Source: Phycisphaerales bacterium
GTDB taxonomy: Bacteria > Planctomycetota > Phycisphaerae > Sedimentisphaerales > Anaerobacaceae
Direction of reading: 5' to 3'
DNA: 64,000 bases
Assembly (NCBI GenBank): GCA_030602885.1
Contig: JAUVYV010000018.1
Span: 327-64,326, forward strand
Notes under the pieces: generated by a model
What the model saw: only the letters and a program-made list of their open reading frames with translations
Told to the model about the DNA's origin: nothing
Databases searched by the model: none
Program-made: the position numbers and the translations under genes
Shown here: positions 217 to 62,065 of the stretch, one piece after another
Layout: the number at the start of each line of letters is the position of its first letter
Numbering within the stretch: the first letter of the stretch is position 1

Positions 217-640
217 TAATCGCGGATTGGCACAGATTATTCACCGCAGAGGACGCAGAGAACGCAGAGATTTCTTTCATTTAATATGAAGATGGTAAGA
301 CAAACCACGGATACCCCTTCGGTAGGCACAAGTTAACGCAGATTAACACAGTATTTTACCGCGGAGGACGCCGAGGACGCAGAGATTTCTTTCATTTAAC
401 ACGAAGATGGCAAGACAAACCACGGATACCCCTTCGGTAGGCACAAGTTTGCGCGGATTAGCGCGGATTATTCACCGCAGAGGACGCAGAGAACGCAGAG
501 ATTTCTTTAATATGAAGATGATAAGGCTAACCGCGGATTAGCGCGGATTATTCACCACCGAGAACGCTGAGATTCTTGTCAGGCACGGATTTTTGTAAGC
601 CACAGAGTTCACAGAGACCACAGAGATTTTTTGTCAGACA
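217..640. repeat. Tandem array of ~115-bp units: two full units, one partial and one degenerate.
   Basis: Units at 217-334 and 335-449 both end in caaaccacggataccccttcggtaggcacaagtt. Each contains ttcaccgcagaggacgcagagaacgcagagatttctttcatttaa. A partial unit lies at 450-530 and the array decays to about 640. Confidence 0.85.
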
Positions 641-42101: not shown

Positions 42102-44993
42102 TTATTTCGCTTTTTCAGCAAGCTTAAAGTATAAATCTTTGAAATCATATATATGCTTACGGCCATAATTATCTGCCAAAAGCATTGCTTCTTTTCGAAT
42201 CTCTTCTACATCTTTATAATCATTCTGTAGTTGTTCAACATGCTGTATAAATTCTGCAAGTTTTTCTTTGTAAATGGAATAATACATAGGCATCTGCTCA
42301 TCATTCACTGCTTTATTCAAACATTTCAAGGCTATAAGTTCATTCCCCTTTGAAGTATCTAAAACGCCTTTTATAAAATCGGTTACTCGCCAATGTTTAC
42401 CAAATCTTCCACCGAGTAATTCTAACGTTTTATAAAGCAATTCGAATGTTTTTTCAGCTTCTATTGGTGAATCTTTCACCCATTTTACAAACTTTTCTGC
42501 TTCTTCTCTGTTCGCCTCTGGGTTTTGTTCAATTTCTTTAATCCTTTCCTCCCAGTACCTCTCCAACCTTTTAGCTATTTCTCCCTCGTCTTTTTTCTCT
42601 TTTATGGCTGTAAACCCGGTCGTCAAAAATCCTGCCGCTTTCCCTCTCAATTTTGCGGATGCTTTCTTATAAAACTCAACCAAAATAGGATCATCATATT
42701 CAATCCATGAATTAAAAAATCCTATCATTAAATGTTCTACAAGTCCCTCATCAGGCTCTTTGTCATGCTTCCCATAGATACCAGTTCCAATTTTACTGAC
42801 TGCATGCATATATTTCCCGCGCTTTTCTAAATCCTCGAAAATTGTCTTATAGGGCCTGCTCCATGTTATATAAGAACCCCATAAAACATCCCATGTTTTG
42901 TCATCCTTCTCATCAAATATGTCGTCTAATTTACCTTCTACCCATTTTTCTTCGAGACCGTATACTTGAGGAAACCAAACACCCAAGACGCACCTTATCC
43001 TTTCGTCTTCGATTTTATCAATCACTTCTTCAAGCACACTACGGATTCTCGCACTCCATTGTTTCTCATAATTCTTTTTATTTTGATTTATAGAAGCTAA
43101 ACCGAATTTCACAACAAGTGAAAATGCTTTTCCTGCCACACAGTTAGCGCTCCTCTGAAATGGGTCCTGTCCGATTTCACTTATTTCTCTTTCATCTTTA
43201 TATCTTACCAATGGCTCAATGATCCCCCAAATCACTTCTCCATTTTCTGTTATTTGCTTTGTTTTTATTTCTTTGTCTTCAAATATACCCTCTATAATAT
43301 AAATTATTGAATTATATACTCCTTCATAATCCTTATTCAAACCCTGTTTATTTACAACATATTTAGCATGATCAATAAATCTTACTAAACTTTCATCTTC
43401 AATCTTTTTCTCTCGCAAAACATTCCAAGCCCCATGAAAATATCTTTTCAGAAAAATAGGTTTTAGTTTAATTATCTCTTCATCTTTCAGTTTGGAATAA
43501 TCATCTATTCTTTGTTGTGCGACTTTCTCGAAAACACCTTCTAATCCTTCTTCTGGGGTATGAAAAAAGCTCTCTTTCTTCTTATCTATCTTCCACCTTG
43601 TGGCATCGCACAAATATTCTATTGCTTCTTTGGGCTCCATCTTACACATTTCATCTACGGTAATAGGTGCCCCCTCTGTTTCTGCTATATCCATCCCTTC
43701 CCCAAGATGAGGCCTTGGTGCAAGAATTTCATCGTCAGCTTCGCTTTTCTCTTTATATTCTTTATAAAGCTCGGGATAACTTTCTTTAACTAAAAACAGT
43801 TCTCTCGCCTTTCTTGAATTCTCTATTGTTTCAAAATCTTTATCAGTAGCTTCCCTTCTTTCTCGTTCCTTAAACCATTTTGATATTCTCTTTTTTTCTT
43901 CCTCATCAATTTTATTTTCTTCTTCTACCCAATTTTCAAAAACTTTCTTTGATTCCGTGCTGATCTCCTCAAATTTGTCATTTAGTAATAGCCTATATTC
44001 ATACCACCAGTAACTCTTCTCTAAAAACTCTGGATTTCCAATTATTGAATTAATCCTTTCTGTCTCCATACCAGCAGGTGCAATTCTCAGCAAATACATA
44101 ATAATCCGTTGGAATACAACTTTGTTTAGACCTCCAAGATAATCCAACATCTCCCCAAAATGTTCAGGTTCTTTTTCAATGACCGCTTTTCCTATTTCAC
44201 ATATGCCTCCCACAAGTATAGCTACAATGTCTCTTTCGAACCTATCACCAATTTGGTCAACCCTCTCAATTGTTATGTTAAAACCGCTCTCAAGTCCATA
44301 ATTTTCGCTGTCAAGTTCCTCAAGACCTTTATTAAATGTATCCGCCAACAGCTTTGCCGCCCTTAATGGGTCAATCTCCCATAGTTTTTTGTAATTCTTG
44401 AATACTAACTCTTGATAGTGATACTCCTCGAATCTTGCTCTTAGGTCACTTGTCCCCTTCTCTCCCTTCCATACCTCAAGCAGCATCTCTGCTATCACAA
44501 AAGCTTTATCTGTCTCAATATCAGCAAGTTGCCTCATAACCTTGGCTGCCGAGTCGCCAACAAAGTACCAAATCTTATTAACACGTCTTTCCAAAAGTTT
44601 TCTGGCTAAAGCACTCGCCTCACTTACGAACTCAGGTCTTTTTTCCAAAAGATCCAGTAATGTATCGAGGGATTTGTGTTGAACAAACCCGTCTTTCGCA
44701 TCTATTCCTGAAATAATGTCAATAACATCTTCCGGAACCTGTTCAACAACCTTTGATAAATAAACTGCCTTCATCCTACCAACTCTGCTAACTTCATCAT
44801 CTTGTAATTCATTAAACTCTCCAGCTTCTTTTAGAATTTTCACCCATTCTCCATTTTCACACTTATCGTAAAAGTATACTGCCAATGCTTCATCATCCCT
44901 GATTATTGTAAGCAGAACATTAAATTCGACTGGAGCAGGCTCCATATTCATTAAAACATCAAGCTTTTTTGCTTTATTATAAAAATCTTTCAT
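42102..44993 (-). CDS. Large (963 aa) all-alpha, HEAT/ARM-like repeat protein of unknown function. It is the second gene of the island operon.
   Basis: The long ORF is uninterrupted in a strongly AT-rich segment. I can see no Walker A motif and no nuclease, protease or kinase motif. The sequence is rich in K, E, W and Y, with amphipathic-helix periodicity. Its ATG overlaps the upstream stop codon (ATGA at 44990-44993). Confidence 0.7.
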   Translation of the reverse strand: MKDFYNKAKKLDVLMNMEPAPVEFNVLLTIIRDDEALAVYFYDKCENGEWVKILKEAGEFNELQDDEVSRVGRMKAVYLSKVVEQVPEDVIDIISGIDAKDGFVQHKSLDTLLDLLEKRPEFVSEASALARKLLERRVNKIWYFVGDSAAKVMRQLADIETDKAFVIAEMLLEVWKGEKGTSDLRARFEEYHYQELVFKNYKKLWEIDPLRAAKLLADTFNKGLEELDSENYGLESGFNITIERVDQIGDRFERDIVAILVGGICEIGKAVIEKEPEHFGEMLDYLGGLNKVVFQRIIMYLLRIAPAGMETERINSIIGNPEFLEKSYWWYEYRLLLNDKFEEISTESKKVFENWVEEENKIDEEEKKRISKWFKERERREATDKDFETIENSRKARELFLVKESYPELYKEYKEKSEADDEILAPRPHLGEGMDIAETEGAPITVDEMCKMEPKEAIEYLCDATRWKIDKKKESFFHTPEEGLEGVFEKVAQQRIDDYSKLKDEEIIKLKPIFLKRYFHGAWNVLREKKIEDESLVRFIDHAKYVVNKQGLNKDYEGVYNSIIYIIEGIFEDKEIKTKQITENGEVIWGIIEPLVRYKDEREISEIGQDPFQRSANCVAGKAFSLVVKFGLASINQNKKNYEKQWSARIRSVLEEVIDKIEDERIRCVLGVWFPQVYGLEEKWVEGKLDDIFDEKDDKTWDVLWGSYITWSRPYKTIFEDLEKRGKYMHAVSKIGTGIYGKHDKEPDEGLVEHLMIGFFNSWIEYDDPILVEFYKKASAKLRGKAAGFLTTGFTAIKEKKDEGEIAKRLERYWEERIKEIEQNPEANREEAEKFVKWVKDSPIEAEKTFELLYKTLELLGGRFGKHWRVTDFIKGVLDTSKGNELIALKCLNKAVNDEQMPMYYSIYKEKLAEFIQHVEQLQNDYKDVEEIRKEAMLLADNYGRKHIYDFKDLYFKLAEKAK

Positions 44994-45820
44994 TCTTCTA
45001 CCTCAATTTCCATCGTTACATTTCTTCCAGGTAAACCAACATCCAAAACAGTTGTTTCAGTTCTTACATAGCGCTTCTTCTCAGTTTCCAAAAGCCATTC
45101 ATTAAGAAAATTTTTGATATACTTCCGAAATTCTGTGATTTCTTCAAACTTTCCGAAAAAAACTATTTTCTCCTCTTTAAGCCGCTCTTTGAATTGTTTA
45201 ACCTTATCGAGTTGTTCGTCAGGTTTTTCCCATCTATCCTCGTTAACTTTTTTGAAATAAACACCTATCTTACACATTCGAAACTTCTTGCTTTTCAGAT
45301 GTTCTTTCAGAAGGGCCTCAGCTATATAAAATTCCTCCTCACTCCCAGAGGAGAACGGCCAGTCGTCGTCATTACTTGGTAGAGAACCCCATCTATCATA
45401 TAATATCAATATGTAACTATCGCACCTAATAAGATGTTTATTGATATATTCCTGTGGTCTACCATACGCTGAAGGAAAATCTCCATAAGCTACATGACGA
45501 AAATAAATGTCTAATTGCTTTGCATATCCCTCATTAATTTCAGTAATCTCATCACACATTGCTTTCCGCTCATCTTCTAATCCACTCGGTGATCCAATGA
45601 ATATTTTGAAAATCCTGTCATTTCTATCTCTTCCATCTGTTTTAACTAACCATGTTGGCTCTGGTATCTCTCCAATTTTCTTTTTCCATTTATTTTTCAG
45701 GATAAAATAAATTATTACCCCCAATATTATGAGTACTGCCACTATTAGAAGACTAAAAATAAAATTCTCCACTACGGTATTCTGTGAATTTATTTGTGCT
45801 TGTAAAATACTCATAAGCAA
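44990..45820 (-). CDS. Single-pass membrane protein with a cytoplasmic DUF4062-like (TIR-like / nucleoside 2-deoxyribosyltransferase-like) domain.
   Basis: The TM helix is NFIFSLLIVAVLIILGVIIYFIL, followed by KNKWKKK. IFIGSPSGLEDERKA...CDSYILILYDRWGS...SGSEEEFYIAEA...VYFKK parallels the DUF4062 pattern as I recall it (vFlSStf.DL..eR...sDvfvlilg.rYGs...SyTelEy..A). The start is TTG at 45820 or ATG at 45814. Confidence 0.65.
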   Translation of the reverse strand: MLMSILQAQINSQNTVVENFIFSLLIVAVLIILGVIIYFILKNKWKKKIGEIPEPTWLVKTDGRDRNDRIFKIFIGSPSGLEDERKAMCDEITEINEGYAKQLDIYFRHVAYGDFPSAYGRPQEYINKHLIRCDSYILILYDRWGSLPSNDDDWPFSSGSEEEFYIAEALLKEHLKSKKFRMCKIGVYFKKVNEDRWEKPDEQLDKVKQFKERLKEEKIVFFGKFEEITEFRKYIKNFLNEWLLETEKKRYVRTETTVLDVGLPGRNVTMEIEVEE

Positions 45821-54904: not shown

Positions 54905-55387
54905 CTACTCGTCGAGACCAAAGAACTTCATCCAATTCTCTGTCTCGCTTTCAGTAAGGCCCTGTCGCTTGGCTGACGGTTCGTTGCGGCGCCTTTGCTT
55001 TCGGCCAAGCTCTTCGCGGACATCTTTCCAGAAAACCTCCGATTTCACCGTCGTTGCTCTTCTCAGTCGAGCTGCATCACGCAGCCTGCGATCGCTGCTG
55101 ACTATCGTCAGCCGTCTCGGGGCACTGCTCGCCCGTATTTTATGCTCAATTACCGTATCACAATCACTCGTCCGACCGGAAAAACTAACTTCCAGATTGC
55201 TTATATTATCGAATCCGCTCTTGTCAGGCGGGCCTATACCGTCGAAGATAATCTCGCCGCGCTCGCCGATCAGCTTCAGATACTTGCCGAGTATTCGACA
55301 CAACTCAACGTCTTCGACCGATTCCTCGTTCTCATGTGAGTCTCGAATCGACCACAACAGATTGTGACCGTCAACGATAACCGGCAT
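54905..55387 (-). CDS. NYN/YacP-like (PIN-related) domain protein, last gene of the pyr operon.
   Basis: The N-terminus is VIVDGHNLLW, followed by IVSSDRRL, as in YacP/Rae1-type NYN proteins. Its start overlaps the pyrC stop codon by 1 nt. Confidence 0.6.
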   Translation of the reverse strand: MPVIVDGHNLLWSIRDSHENEESVEDVELCRILGKYLKLIGERGEIIFDGIGPPDKSGFDNISNLEVSFSGRTSDCDTVIEHKIRASSAPRRLTIVSSDRRLRDAARLRRATTVKSEVFWKDVREELGRKQRRRNEPSAKRQGLTESETENWMKFFGLDE

Positions 55388-58798: not shown

Positions 58799-58888
58799 AT
58801 CGCGGATTGGGACAGTTGGTTCACCACCAAGACGCAAAGACACGAAGAAATTGGAACCACGGATACCCCTTCGGTAGGCACAAGTTGA
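58799..58888. repeat. Solo copy of the 115-bp repeat family seen in tandem at 217-640.
   Basis: atcgcggattgggacag...ttcaccaccaagacgcaaagacacgaagaa...ccacggataccccttcggtaggcacaagtt. The terminal 30-mer is identical to the unit ends at 305-334 and 420-449. Confidence 0.8.
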
Positions 58889-59277
58889 CACGGATTATCA
58901 CGGATTGCGGGGTTGATTATGGAAATCCGCCTACGGCGGACTTGTTTGCCGGGCGAAGGGGCGATATACTCTATGAAGCGTGTTTGAAATCGATGAACGA
59001 ATTGGAATGGAGAAGAAGAATAGGTGACTGTGGGGGTGTTGAAAAAGTGGCGTAATGAGAATTTTAGCCCTAATCCCGAATCCCGGCCTGAAATCGCATG
59101 TTGTTTTTTTGTTTACAGGGTTTTTCAACAGCCCCACTATCCCTGCGACTGTCCCTCAAGACATTGCTTTCTTTGATTGGCAGATTGACGCTGATTGCGC
59201 TTTGGTGTATTTTATACAGTAGACATGGTTCCAATGCAAAGATGTCTGGATTCACGTTGCTATGAAAGGACAAGATT

Positions 59278-59586
59278 ATGCCCTTTGAGTACTGGGGTTA
59301 TCAGTTTGAGGGAGCGTACACCTTGCCTGATCTTTTGAAGTCGAACGCCGGAGTCTACGTTATCTGGTGTGAAAGCGAAGGCAACTGGACTGTGCTTGAC
59401 GTTGGGGAAGCTGCCGACGTGAAGAAGCGGGTCAAGAACCATGACCGAACTCGCTGCTGGGAAGAGCATTGTCGAGGCACAATTTATTATTCAGCAACCT
59501 ATACGCCAAGTCTCCAACAGGAAGATAGAATGAAGATAGAAGAAAGAATAAGGAGCTTGGCAAGTCCACCATGCGGTAGCCGCTAG
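59278..59586 (+). CDS. Hypothetical 102-aa protein, with a weak GIY-YIG-like N-terminal pattern.
   Basis: An aaagga RBS is present. AGVYVIW...LDVGEAADVKKRVKNH loosely resembles the GIY...YIG...R..H pattern. The family call is tentative. Confidence 0.4.
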   Translation: MPFEYWGYQFEGAYTLPDLLKSNAGVYVIWCESEGNWTVLDVGEAADVKKRVKNHDRTRCWEEHCRGTIYYSATYTPSLQQEDRMKIEERIRSLASPPCGSR

Positions 59587-59755
59587 GGTATTGTTCCCTC
59601 TTGGTTGCCATGTGTGATGCAGCGATTGAAGGCAAATATGAGAGGCATGTTTGAAGACAGAAGAATCAACGAGATTATGAAAGCAGCCAACGGCGGACTT
59701 GTCACTTTCAAGCCGTACATTCGTAAGCCAAGCATTTGACGGGGAATCGTGAGTC

Positions 59756-60667
59756 ATGGATCAACCATACGGAGGGATTAGACTGGACATCCCAACGATC
59801 AACGATGATCCTGGAGATTTTGACAGACTCTTCGGACTCTGGCAGGTGGTCAACGATTCTTGTGGCGACGTGACGTTTGACTTTACACCATGCCGCTTTT
59901 TACGTCCTAATGCGATCGCGTTCCTGGGTGGTTTGGCACGTTTAATTCAAAGCCAGAATCGTTCAGGAACGTTCGATTGGGAGACAGTGAGCGATCCAGT
60001 TCTGGCAATACTCAGACAAAATGGATTTGCTGGCGCCTTTGGATATATACATACTTTAGGAGGGCCTGGCAGCTCAATACCATATCGAGAAGATAGAACT
60101 TATGCAACTGGTGTAGAAAATGATATTATAAACTATCTTAAATTTAATTGGTTAGGCACTGGTTGGGTTCGTGTAACTTCCAGACTTAGAGACGCAATTG
60201 TAGGAAGGGTTTGGGAGATCTACGCTAACGCATTCTTACATGCTAAGTCGAACATTGGGGTCTTTAGTTGTGGCCAGTACTTTTGGCAGATGCATGTTCT
60301 CAAATTAGCTGTGGTAGATTTTGGTGTTGGTATTACAACAAGTGTAAAACAGTATTTTAAGGAAACGCATTCTGCGGAAGAGTTAGATGCAGCAGTTTGT
60401 TTAGAATGGGCATTTCGGGAAAGAACTTCAACAATTAAGGGGGTAGGACGCGGAAATGGGCTTAGTCTTCTTAAAGAATTTGTAAATATTAACCATGGAA
60501 GACTTGAAGTCTACAGCCAAGATGGGTATGCTTTGATCGAAGGCGGAAAAGAAAAATTTAATAACCGACGGAAATATTTTCAAGGAACGCTGGTAAACAT
60601 TACTCTTCGCTGTGATAAGAAGTACTACCAACTTGTTGATGAAGGCCCTTCTGGACCCTTGTTTTAA
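59756..60667 (+). CDS. GHKL-superfamily ATPase / SpoIIAB-RsbW-like Ser/Thr kinase domain protein, with an unknown N-terminal ~100-aa domain.
   Basis: The N-box is WEIYANAFLHAKS. The G1 motif is VVDFGVGI. The G2 motif is GVGRGNGLSLL. Local GC is low. Confidence 0.7.
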   Translation: MDQPYGGIRLDIPTINDDPGDFDRLFGLWQVVNDSCGDVTFDFTPCRFLRPNAIAFLGGLARLIQSQNRSGTFDWETVSDPVLAILRQNGFAGAFGYIHTLGGPGSSIPYREDRTYATGVENDIINYLKFNWLGTGWVRVTSRLRDAIVGRVWEIYANAFLHAKSNIGVFSCGQYFWQMHVLKLAVVDFGVGITTSVKQYFKETHSAEELDAAVCLEWAFRERTSTIKGVGRGNGLSLLKEFVNINHGRLEVYSQDGYALIEGGKEKFNNRRKYFQGTLVNITLRCDKKYYQLVDEGPSGPLF

Positions 60668-60682
60668 TAAGGAGAAATCAGG

Positions 60683-61030
60683 ATGAACGTAGAAATAAAA
60701 ACTTTGGTGGGTGATAGTTGTGTGACATCAGAAGATGGACAGCGTGTTTACGATGTAATTTATCCCAAGCTGGCAGCCGGTGAGTCAGTTTGTTTGAATT
60801 TCTCCAATATACGGGTTTTTGCGTCTCCCTTCTTCAATTTTGCCATCGGGCAGCTTCTTAAGGACTTAGAACCCGATGCTCTGAACCAGCTGCTGAAAGT
60901 AGAGAAAATTACTGCTGATGGCTTGCTCATATGCCAGCAAGTCGTAAAAAATGCCAAGGAATACTACAGGAATCCGGAGACAAAGAAAGCCGTCGATGAC
61001 ATTCTGAAACAACAAGCGGAGGACGAGTAA
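60683..61030 (+). CDS. DUF4325 / STAS-like domain protein.
   Basis: The 115-aa protein has SVCLNFSNIRVFASPFFNFAIGQL, the ...v.lDF.gV....sSF..e.ig.l pattern of STAS-like DUF4325 proteins. These usually sit beside a GHKL ATPase. Confidence 0.65.
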   Translation: MNVEIKTLVGDSCVTSEDGQRVYDVIYPKLAAGESVCLNFSNIRVFASPFFNFAIGQLLKDLEPDALNQLLKVEKITADGLLICQQVVKNAKEYYRNPETKKAVDDILKQQAEDE

Positions 61031-61653
61031 TGCCTGTAAACTATGTGATTGGCGCGGATATCATAGATATCAGAGTAGATACACCAGGGCCCGAAGACGT
61101 TTTCCTCGTGGATTCAAATGTCTGGTACTGGATGGCCTACACCAAAGCAAGCCTTGCGAACAAACCGCCGTGGCCGCAACAAATTCACGACTATCCTACT
61201 TTCGTAAATAAAGCCATTGGTGTAAGCGCAAAGCTGTACCGATGTGGGCTATCATTTGCAGAGTTAGCACATCGCATCGAAAGAACAGAACTGGAAATCT
61301 TCGAGAAGACCTTTGGGCGAATCTACCCTAAAGAATACCGCCACAACCACCCTTCACAGCGCTCAAATGTAGTGAGTGAAGTTAAAGCTGCGTGGGCACA
61401 GGTCAAGACAATGGCATCGTCTCTGGATGTTACGATTAATGATGCCGTAGCGGATGCCGCGATTGGCCGTTTTGATAATGAGTGCGTCGATGGATATGAC
61501 CTGTTCTTCTTGGAGGCAATGACTAACGAGAAAGTAATCAAGATCATTACGGATGATGGAGACTTCGCGACTGTATCAGAGATACAAGTCTTCACTGCAA
61601 ACCAGAACGTTGTCACTGCCGCACAGAGCCAAGGCAAGCTCGTAACGAGATAA
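61030..61653 (+). CDS. PIN-like nuclease domain protein.
   Basis: Four acidic positions fall in PIN order: FLVDSNVW, SFAELAHRIE, DGYDLFFLEA and IITDDGDF. The ATG overlaps the upstream TAA stop codon (TAATG). Confidence 0.6.
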   Translation: MPVNYVIGADIIDIRVDTPGPEDVFLVDSNVWYWMAYTKASLANKPPWPQQIHDYPTFVNKAIGVSAKLYRCGLSFAELAHRIERTELEIFEKTFGRIYPKEYRHNHPSQRSNVVSEVKAAWAQVKTMASSLDVTINDAVADAAIGRFDNECVDGYDLFFLEAMTNEKVIKIITDDGDFATVSEIQVFTANQNVVTAAQSQGKLVTR

Positions 61654-62036
61654 GCCTGATACGTTGGGAGCGAATGAGTCTGCGGACGCGTAAAAGATAT
61701 TACACCGCCCCAAGTTCCAGTCCGCTAGGCGAGTAAACTGAGGAAACTCCGCAAACCAGACAGTCACCTATTTTGCTAAAAACAGCAGAGGAGACGTTTA
61801 ATTGGGCCGTATTGCGTATTGCGTATAGTGGATGGGGGTTGGGATGGCCGCCGCACTTACTTCTTAGGATGGGGGTTATTGAAGCGATTTCGAGTGCCGG
61901 GTTGACGAACATCAGAGTTAGGGATTGTGGTTAGATGTGGAAGTAGGTGCGGGGTCTTCGCTTCGCCCGCCTACGGCGGGCAAGCTTCGAGGGCTTAAAC
62001 ATTTGTTGCAGGTGGGTGGTGGTGCGGGTTGTTCGA

Positions 62037-62065
62037 TTGAAAAATGTCGGCAAATGTGGTATAAT
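62037..62065 (+). promoter_or_regulatory. Near-consensus extended -10 sigma-70 promoter for hflX.
   Basis: TTGAAA, 17-nt spacer ending in TGg, TATAAT. It lies 35 nt upstream of the hflX TTG start. Confidence 0.65.

Follow-up and report, generated by a model that had tools for sequence, protein, structure and literature searches.

Introduction

The closest described counterpart of the genes considered here, which lie on the forward strand of a 64,000-nucleotide (nt) stretch of DNA from a Phycisphaerales bacterium (contig JAUVYV010000018.1 of assembly GCA_030602885.1; this whole stretch is called the window below), is vapKSC, a three-gene operon described by Chambers, Rani, Min, Villa and Corbett (EMBO J 2026; PMC13373217). 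According to these authors, vapKSC derives from the CapK–CapS type and is represented by 289 instances in IMG, vapK homologues being defined as CapK homologues without a helix-turn-helix (HTH) domain. CapK–CapS itself consists of a DNA-damage-activated kinase and a repressor, built of a STAS and a winged HTH (wHTH) domain, which controls adjacent immune operons (PMC13373217).

The characterised operon is that of Escherichia sp. E4736 (PDB 9z7o). Its VapC is toxic, and the D28A variant is non-toxic; VapS rescues the toxicity, the rescue requiring VapS residues 94–116 and being lost in the phosphomimetic S48E, which also abolishes VapS–VapC binding. The two proteins form a 2:2 crystal complex, with S48 buried at the interface and the C-terminal helix of VapS about 6 Å from the active site of VapC; the antitoxin leaves the active-site Mg2+ in place. 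The operon protects against phage Bas42 by about 2 logs, and this protection is abolished by VapC D28A, VapS S48A, or VapK F54A (PMC13373217). For the PIN.4 subgroup of PIN domains, a coupling to DUF4325 genes had been reported earlier (Matelska et al., 2017; PMC5499597).

A vapKSC-like operon in the window

The open reading frame (ORF) list of the window contains four co-directional genes in the region in question, orf102, vapK, vapS, and vapC (Table 1). The last three are in all likelihood a member of the known vapKSC family, that is, a kinase-controlled toxin–antitoxin (TA) and anti-phage module, as judged from the homology of their products. The initial annotation had described three co-directional genes in a low-GC patch, with 15 nt between the first two and a TAATG overlap of the last two, and the ORF list, the sequence, and the GC content all agree with this description: the gap between vapK and vapS is 15 nt long and contains the Shine–Dalgarno sequence AAGGAG; the TAA stop of vapS and the ATG start of vapC share one base (GAGTAATGCC, 61028–61032); and the GC content is 0.39–0.48 over 59750–61750 versus 0.52–0.58 in the flanks.

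VapC matches Escherichia VapC (PDB 9z7o_C) along residues 5–205 versus 5–202 with E = 3.3e-46, the sole match among PDB sequences, and is 43% identical to VapC of E. coli (E = 2e-59). The Pfam PIN match is under the gathering score (E = 0.012); the PIN fold is confirmed by the full-length homology to the crystallised Escherichia protein. Seven acidic residues (D28, E84, E87, D154, D157, D175, and D176) are invariant in 71 homologues, and D28 has the same residue number in the window and Escherichia proteins. The initial reading of the 207-amino acid (aa) product as a PIN protein with a set of acidic residues is thereby borne out.

VapS belongs to DUF4325 (Pfam PF14213, E = 7e-15), the family to which the 115-aa product had been assigned at the outset. 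It matches Escherichia VapS (PDB 9z7o_A, E = 3e-22) at residues 3–114, the C-terminal region included, and is 38% identical to the E. coli protein (E = 3e-30). Position 48, at which the window and Escherichia proteins have serine under the same residue number, is occupied by Ser in 76 of the 78 homologues, and by Thr and Ala in one each; F50, N52, and G56 are likewise invariant or nearly so. Searches of Pfam and NCBIfam with VapS yield only DUF4325/STAS and no DNA-binding family, and the NCBIfam scan of the cassette proteins gave nothing useful.

VapK is 49% identical, over 296 aligned residues, to VapK encoded in an operon of E. coli JNE25-001 (E = 6e-104), and matches phrog_3364, a PHROGs family of unknown function, over its full length (E = 7e-36). 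Sequence search reveals no relative of VapK in PDB, and its Pfam HATPase_c match is under the gathering score (E = 0.001); the GHKL fold is supported by the AlphaFold 2 model (predicted local distance difference test, pLDDT, 85.7), whose Foldseek matches include SpoIIAB (1l0o, TMt 0.72). No HTH family is matched by VapK in Pfam or NCBIfam, and no STAS family in Pfam; residues 8–94 of the model show an alternating beta–alpha pattern compatible with STAS. Invariant or near-invariant residues are F48, E154 and N158 of the N-box, H162, D188 and G190 of G1, and G233 and G235 of G2. The ANAFLHA, DFGVGI, and GRGNGLSLL motifs of the kinase and the ITDDGDF motif of the PIN protein, named in the initial annotation, are all present, their key residues being invariant or near-invariant among homologues. 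As a separate observation, four VapK homologues (P0170, P0197, P0213, and P0214; 390–398 aa) are about 95 aa longer than the others.

Phe48 of VapK is invariant in 79 homologues and is aligned with F49 of E. coli VapK. Due to an in-frame ATG five codons 5' of the annotated E. coli vapK start, F49 becomes F54 in the longer gene model. The window residue F48 would hence be the equivalent of Escherichia F54, by comparison with the E. coli rather than the E4736 VapK sequence.

Table 1. Features of the cassette region (window coordinates, nt).
Feature	Position	Strand	Description
5' leader of the mobile cassette	59152–59277	+	homology with relatives L085–L087 starts at 59152
orf102	59278–59586	+	102 aa; GIY-YIG-fold protein; accessory to a cassette subclade, outside the published three-gene system
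orf102–vapK intergenic region	59587–59755	+	DNA conserved in part
vapK	59756–60667	+	303 aa; CapK-like GHKL serine kinase (predicted); N-terminal STAS-like domain by secondary-structure pattern; no HTH
vapS	60683–61030	+	115 aa; STAS (DUF4325) antitoxin (predicted); putative phospho-acceptor Ser48; C-terminal inhibitory helix region
vapC	61030–61653	+	207 aa; PIN-domain toxin nuclease (predicted), PIN.4 subgroup of Matelska et al.
3' tail of the cassette	61654–61713	+	homology to L085 and L087 runs 60 nt beyond the vapC stop, then ends abruptly

Conservation and distribution of the triad

One genome per GTDB species was scanned with the VapK alignment, giving 373 genomes with a relative; 83 loci were analysed: the 80 best ones, two from IMG/VR, and the Logan contig of the window itself. 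The order vapK–vapS–vapC is seen in 80 of them, the exceptions being two loci at contig ends and one degraded locus, so that this recurrent arrangement is not a matter of chance. The one-base T(A/G)ATG overlap of vapS and vapC is present in 67 of 73 loci, which indicates a conserved translational coupling of the predicted antitoxin and toxin. The triad is retained even in a Deinococcus plasmid copy with about 25% identity. The third gene of the triad and the overlap, for which the initial annotation had left open whether they vary among related loci, are conserved.

Hosts of the triad come from Planctomycetota, Desulfobacterota, Nitrospirota, Cyanobacteria, Chlorobi, Ignavibacteriota, and Gammaproteobacteria, among others; Pseudomonas, Rahnella, and Thiosymbion are among them, and one locus comes from a metagenome-assembled genome labelled "archaeon". 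Phage and plasmid collections gave one distant match each, hence the family is mainly chromosomal. Among 5426 complete E. coli genomes, searched by blastn with a Rahnella vapKSC locus, two carry vapKSC. In the operon of JNE25-001 (L084; NZ_AP045049.1, 982195–984054), the encoded VapS shares 96% identity with its crystallised counterpart, and VapC 90%. The operon is flanked by mntR on one side and, on the other, by the tail module of a prophage, at the tail-fibre end, and its RefSeq annotation is generic (ATP-binding protein, STAS-like domain-containing protein, and PIN domain-containing protein), with no system name. The plasmid copy mentioned above (Deinococcus gobiensis plasmid P5, 39983–41829; L165) has an HTH regulator gene ahead of the triad and, about 0.9 kb away on the opposite strand, two canonical GIY-YIG nuclease genes with no detectable kinship to orf102.

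PADLOC-DB 2.0.0 has no model that recognises VapS or VapC, whether from the window or from E. coli; VapK gives there only a local GHKL match to a DrmA model. The system post-dates this library.

In several relatives, degradation has split vapK or vapC (L011, L016, L048, L054, L069, L074, and L081), and this, together with the GC content of the window locus being lower than that of its flanks, is what could be expected if the locus were the decaying relic, no longer functional, of an island gained by horizontal transfer. We regard this as extremely improbable: all four ORFs are full-length, every invariant catalytic residue is present, the Shine–Dalgarno sequence and the overlap are intact, and an identical copy of the locus has been assembled independently from a sequencing run (Logan contig L001). 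A functional vapKSC module remains the preferred reading.

Proposed mechanism

By analogy with the Escherichia homologue, from which the complex, the toxicity, the rescue, the phosphomimetic effect, and the phage protection are carried over, the products of the window triad would work as follows. The resting VapC2–VapS2 complex would be inactive, the STAS face of VapS binding VapC and the C-terminal helix lying near the active site. VapK would be switched on, probably by single-stranded DNA (ssDNA) from DNA damage or phage infection, and the activated kinase would phosphorylate Ser48 of VapS. As this serine would lie within the VapS–VapC interface, phosphorylated VapS is expected to dissociate, and the freed VapC may then arrest growth, probably through tRNA or rRNA cutting. 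The one-base stop/start overlap would couple the translation of antitoxin and toxin. The activation of VapK by ssDNA, the phosphotransfer, and the RNA target are presumed steps in the literature as well.

A SpoIIAB-like kinase and a STAS protein gating a PIN nuclease, in a TA-like or abortive-infection module, had been proposed in the initial annotation; this coincides with the published model of Escherichia vapKSC, and the window homologues retain D28 and S48. The right mechanism was thus deduced from sequence alone, though the triad already bears the name VapKSC (PMC13373217). The partner-switch part of the proposal stands only in part: the control of a PIN protein by a kinase and a STAS protein agrees with the published model, whereas the sigma factor and the phosphatase are missing, and VapS would be released from VapC by phosphorylation. 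A passage of VapS between VapC and the kinase as alternative partners is not described in the published model (PMC13373217).

A true partner switch of the SpoIIAB–SpoIIAA or RsbW–RsbV kind, in which a transcription factor would be sequestered by the kinase and freed by the STAS protein, with the PIN gene an unrelated downstream neighbour, seems very improbable here. The VapK model is indeed similar to SpoIIAB, and the STAS protein VapS carries a serine where the canonical phospho-site is expected; however, neither a sigma factor nor a PP2C phosphatase is encoded in or beside the cassette, whose neighbours are pyrR, pyrB, pyrC, and hflX; the PIN gene accompanies the pair in 80 of the 83 loci and shares one base with vapS; and the crystal structure of the homologues shows VapS directly bound to VapC (PMC13373217). 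The kinase-controlled TA module is therefore retained as the preferred reading below.

The mobile cassette

DNA comparison with three close metagenomic relatives (L085–L087) delimits a cassette of 2.56 kb (59152–61713), with the left end 126 nt 5' of orf102 and the right end 60 nt past the vapC stop; outside it, the flanks of the window and of the relatives are unrelated. The four-gene unit is found in differing housekeeping contexts: between pyrR and hflX in the window, with ffh downstream (L085), with yebC and an O-antigen ligase gene (L121), with a GGDEF gene (L152), and with an AI-2E transporter gene (L002). Hence, the 2.56-kb cassette is mobile. It contains no recognisable recombinase, and at its ends only short, chance-level repeats are seen, with no terminal repeats or att sites beyond these and no target-site duplication.

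A sigma-70-type promoter-like element, TTGACG-17-TATTTT (59185–59213), is conserved in the boundary alignment and presumably serves as a promoter; the counts of promoter-like and terminator-like sites in a scan of the whole region are equal to those expected by chance. The orf102–vapK intergenic region has a mean column identity of 71% (alignment A4), with blocks such as CTTGTCACTTTCA. The possible 33-aa ORF within it (59638–59739), listed in the initial annotation, is probably not a gene: the small-ORF peptides differ among the relatives in frame and sequence.

A GC-rich hairpin motif, CCGCCTACGGCGG, occurs at 58926–58940 (from 58927) and at 61967–61979, the first copy scoring as terminator-like; an imperfect copy, CAGCCAACGGCGG, lies at 59684–59696, upstream of vapK. 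The motif and its relatives were considered as cassette ends and rejected, their positions differing from the homology boundaries 59152 and 61713.

The mobility bears on whether the locus is a plain addiction TA system, in which VapS–VapC would stabilise the mobile cassette by post-segregational killing, VapK would merely tune it, and no phage defence would be provided in this host. A discrete mobile unit in such unrelated contexts is in line with this, as are the location of the window cassette outside any defence island, the fact that only 36% of the published vapKSC instances are within 10 kb of another defence gene (PMC13373217), and the antitoxin–toxin translational coupling, which is typical of type II TA pairs. 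Still, VapK with intact catalytic motifs is kept in essentially every locus, which argues for a required signalling input, and the Escherichia homologue does protect against phage, mutations at VapK F54, VapS S48, and VapC D28 each abolishing the protection (PMC13373217). Plain addiction is therefore considered unlikely, and an anti-phage vapKSC module is preferred.

The GIY-YIG-fold gene orf102

The first gene of the cassette encodes a 102-aa protein, described initially as weakly GIY-YIG-like. The fold is supported by the AlphaFold 2 model (pLDDT 93.8), the best Foldseek matches being the GIY-YIG domains of UvrC (probability 1.0, TM 0.5–0.66); in Pfam, only T5orf172 is matched (E = 0.016). 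Y27 and E88 are near-invariant, and there are conserved cysteines; the second motif is DVG instead of YIG, i.e., it lacks the canonical second Tyr, and the Arg residue R52 is not invariant. Homologues of orf102 form 87 clusters, and the wider family has 1070 representatives at E <= 1e-3, nearly all of them stand-alone proteins of about 100 aa.

Of 32 informative metagenome loci with an orf102 homologue, only 12 have it ahead of vapKSC, and, conversely, only 3 of the 83 vapK loci contain one, which rules out orf102 as an obligate fourth component of VapKSC. Elsewhere among the related loci (L085–L164), members of the orf102 family have other defence-type genes as neighbours: those for ApeA, a RelA_SpoT toxSAS-like protein, an HD + HD_assoc dGTPase-like protein, and Trypsin_2, and also DUF1156 methylases, DUF3800, a UvrD helicase, an MBL pair, and an integrase. 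The recurrence of orf102 beside defence genes is the sole element left unexplained by the papers cited here, and could point to an unrecognised accessory or mobility function in defence islands. Tentatively, and with considerable doubt, the unit in the window might be regarded as a four-gene 2.56-kb cassette with its own promoter-like element, where orf102 would be either a minimal nuclease serving to move or home defence cassettes between housekeeping genes, or a shared accessory or sensor, e.g., one making DNA ends or ssDNA that activate VapK.

Assessment of the vapKSC assignment

Several points weigh against the assignment and the mechanism attached to it. Identity to the characterised and E. 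coli proteins is only 38–49%. The match of the VapK N-terminus to the VapS profile is not significant (hhalign, E = 0.026, probability 1.9%), so that only the secondary-structure pattern fits STAS. Escherichia VapK was insoluble, and phosphotransfer and activation by ssDNA were inferred there from CapK and AlphaFold 3 models (PMC13373217). There is no strict defence island around the cassette, its neighbours being pyr genes and hflX and the nearest defence-like genes lying about 14 kb off. Finally, orf102 is outside the published vapKSC model.

If the assignment holds, an anti-phage TA family validated only in Escherichia is extended to a distant uncultured lineage. The retention of the K–S–C architecture, the phospho-serine, the catalytic Asp, and the overlap across many bacterial phyla supports the published mechanism as a general one. 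What is new here is modest: the mobility of the cassette and the co-travelling GIY-YIG-fold gene.

Genomic surroundings

The non-coding tract of 1 kb that separates pyrR from the cassette, described initially as repeat-rich, is not notably so; it contains one copy of a dispersed 30-nt repeat, CCACGGATACCCCTTCGGTAGGCACAAGTT, which has three exact copies in the window (305–334, 420–449, and 58857–58886, forward strand) and no match in Rfam. The copies lie within longer units at 150–560 and 58800–58910, with repeat units of about 50–110 nt. Downstream of the cassette, a promoter-like site at 62037–62065 agrees with the hflX promoter placed there by the initial annotation. Rfam and ARAGORN detect no RNA gene, be it within the cassette, near it, or in the rest of the window.

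About 14 kb from vapKSC, on the reverse strand, a 962-aa protein (42102–44993) aligns with the Dsr1 model of PADLOC over the C-terminal two thirds of the latter (E = 3e-31), and the overlapping gene upstream of it (44990–45820; 275 aa, DUF4062) matches PDC-S60 (E = 3e-12); the two may be a split DSR-like defence pair. A YacP-like NYN-domain protein, of a nuclease fold in the PIN-like superfamily, is encoded on the reverse strand directly downstream of pyrC in the pyr run (54905–55387).

Comparison with known systems

With SpoIIAB–SpoIIAA and RsbW–RsbV, the window proteins share the GHKL serine kinase fold and a STAS substrate whose helix 2 begins with a serine; the differences are that the STAS partner in VapKSC is a nuclease and that the kinase has an extra N-terminal domain. 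With PIN.4 as catalogued by Matelska et al. (PMC5499597), the window VapC shares the seven invariant acidic positions and the DUF4325 partner, whereas the catalogue gives no function and does not mention the kinase.

Similar to type II TA systems of the VapBC kind, a PIN toxin with conserved acidic residues would be neutralised by a small protein from the adjacent upstream, translationally coupled gene. Unlike in VapBC, the antitoxin is of the STAS fold rather than an AbrB, ribbon–helix–helix, MazE, PHD, or HTH DNA-binding protein, release would proceed via phosphorylation by a dedicated kinase rather than proteolysis, and the active-site Mg2+ is left undisplaced by the antitoxin in the Escherichia structure (PMC13373217).

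CapK–CapS and the window system have in common a GHKL kinase with an internal STAS domain (in VapK, a putatively STAS-like region) and a STAS substrate phosphorylated, or predicted to be phosphorylated, at a conserved serine, with ssDNA as the proposed signal. CapK, however, carries an HTH at its N-terminus and CapS a wHTH at its C-terminus, and their output is transcriptional, whereas the window VapK begins with the putatively STAS-like region, VapS has no DNA-binding domain, and the output would be direct toxin release.

The likeness is greatest with VapKSC of Escherichia. Here, the differences are the 38–49% identity; the location, the window copy being chromosomal between pyrR and hflX, while that of E. 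coli lies next to mntR and borders on the tail module of a prophage; and the upstream 102-aa GIY-YIG-fold gene co-transferred in the window, which the published operon lacks. In common are three proteins in identical order, with full-length homology for all three; VapC D28, VapS S48, and the Phe residue and GHKL motifs of VapK; VapS of nearly equal length (115 aa in the window, 116 aa in Escherichia), with the conserved C-terminal helix region KK.VD.IL.QQA.E; and, in the window and in E. coli alike, the TAATG overlap joining vapS to vapC.

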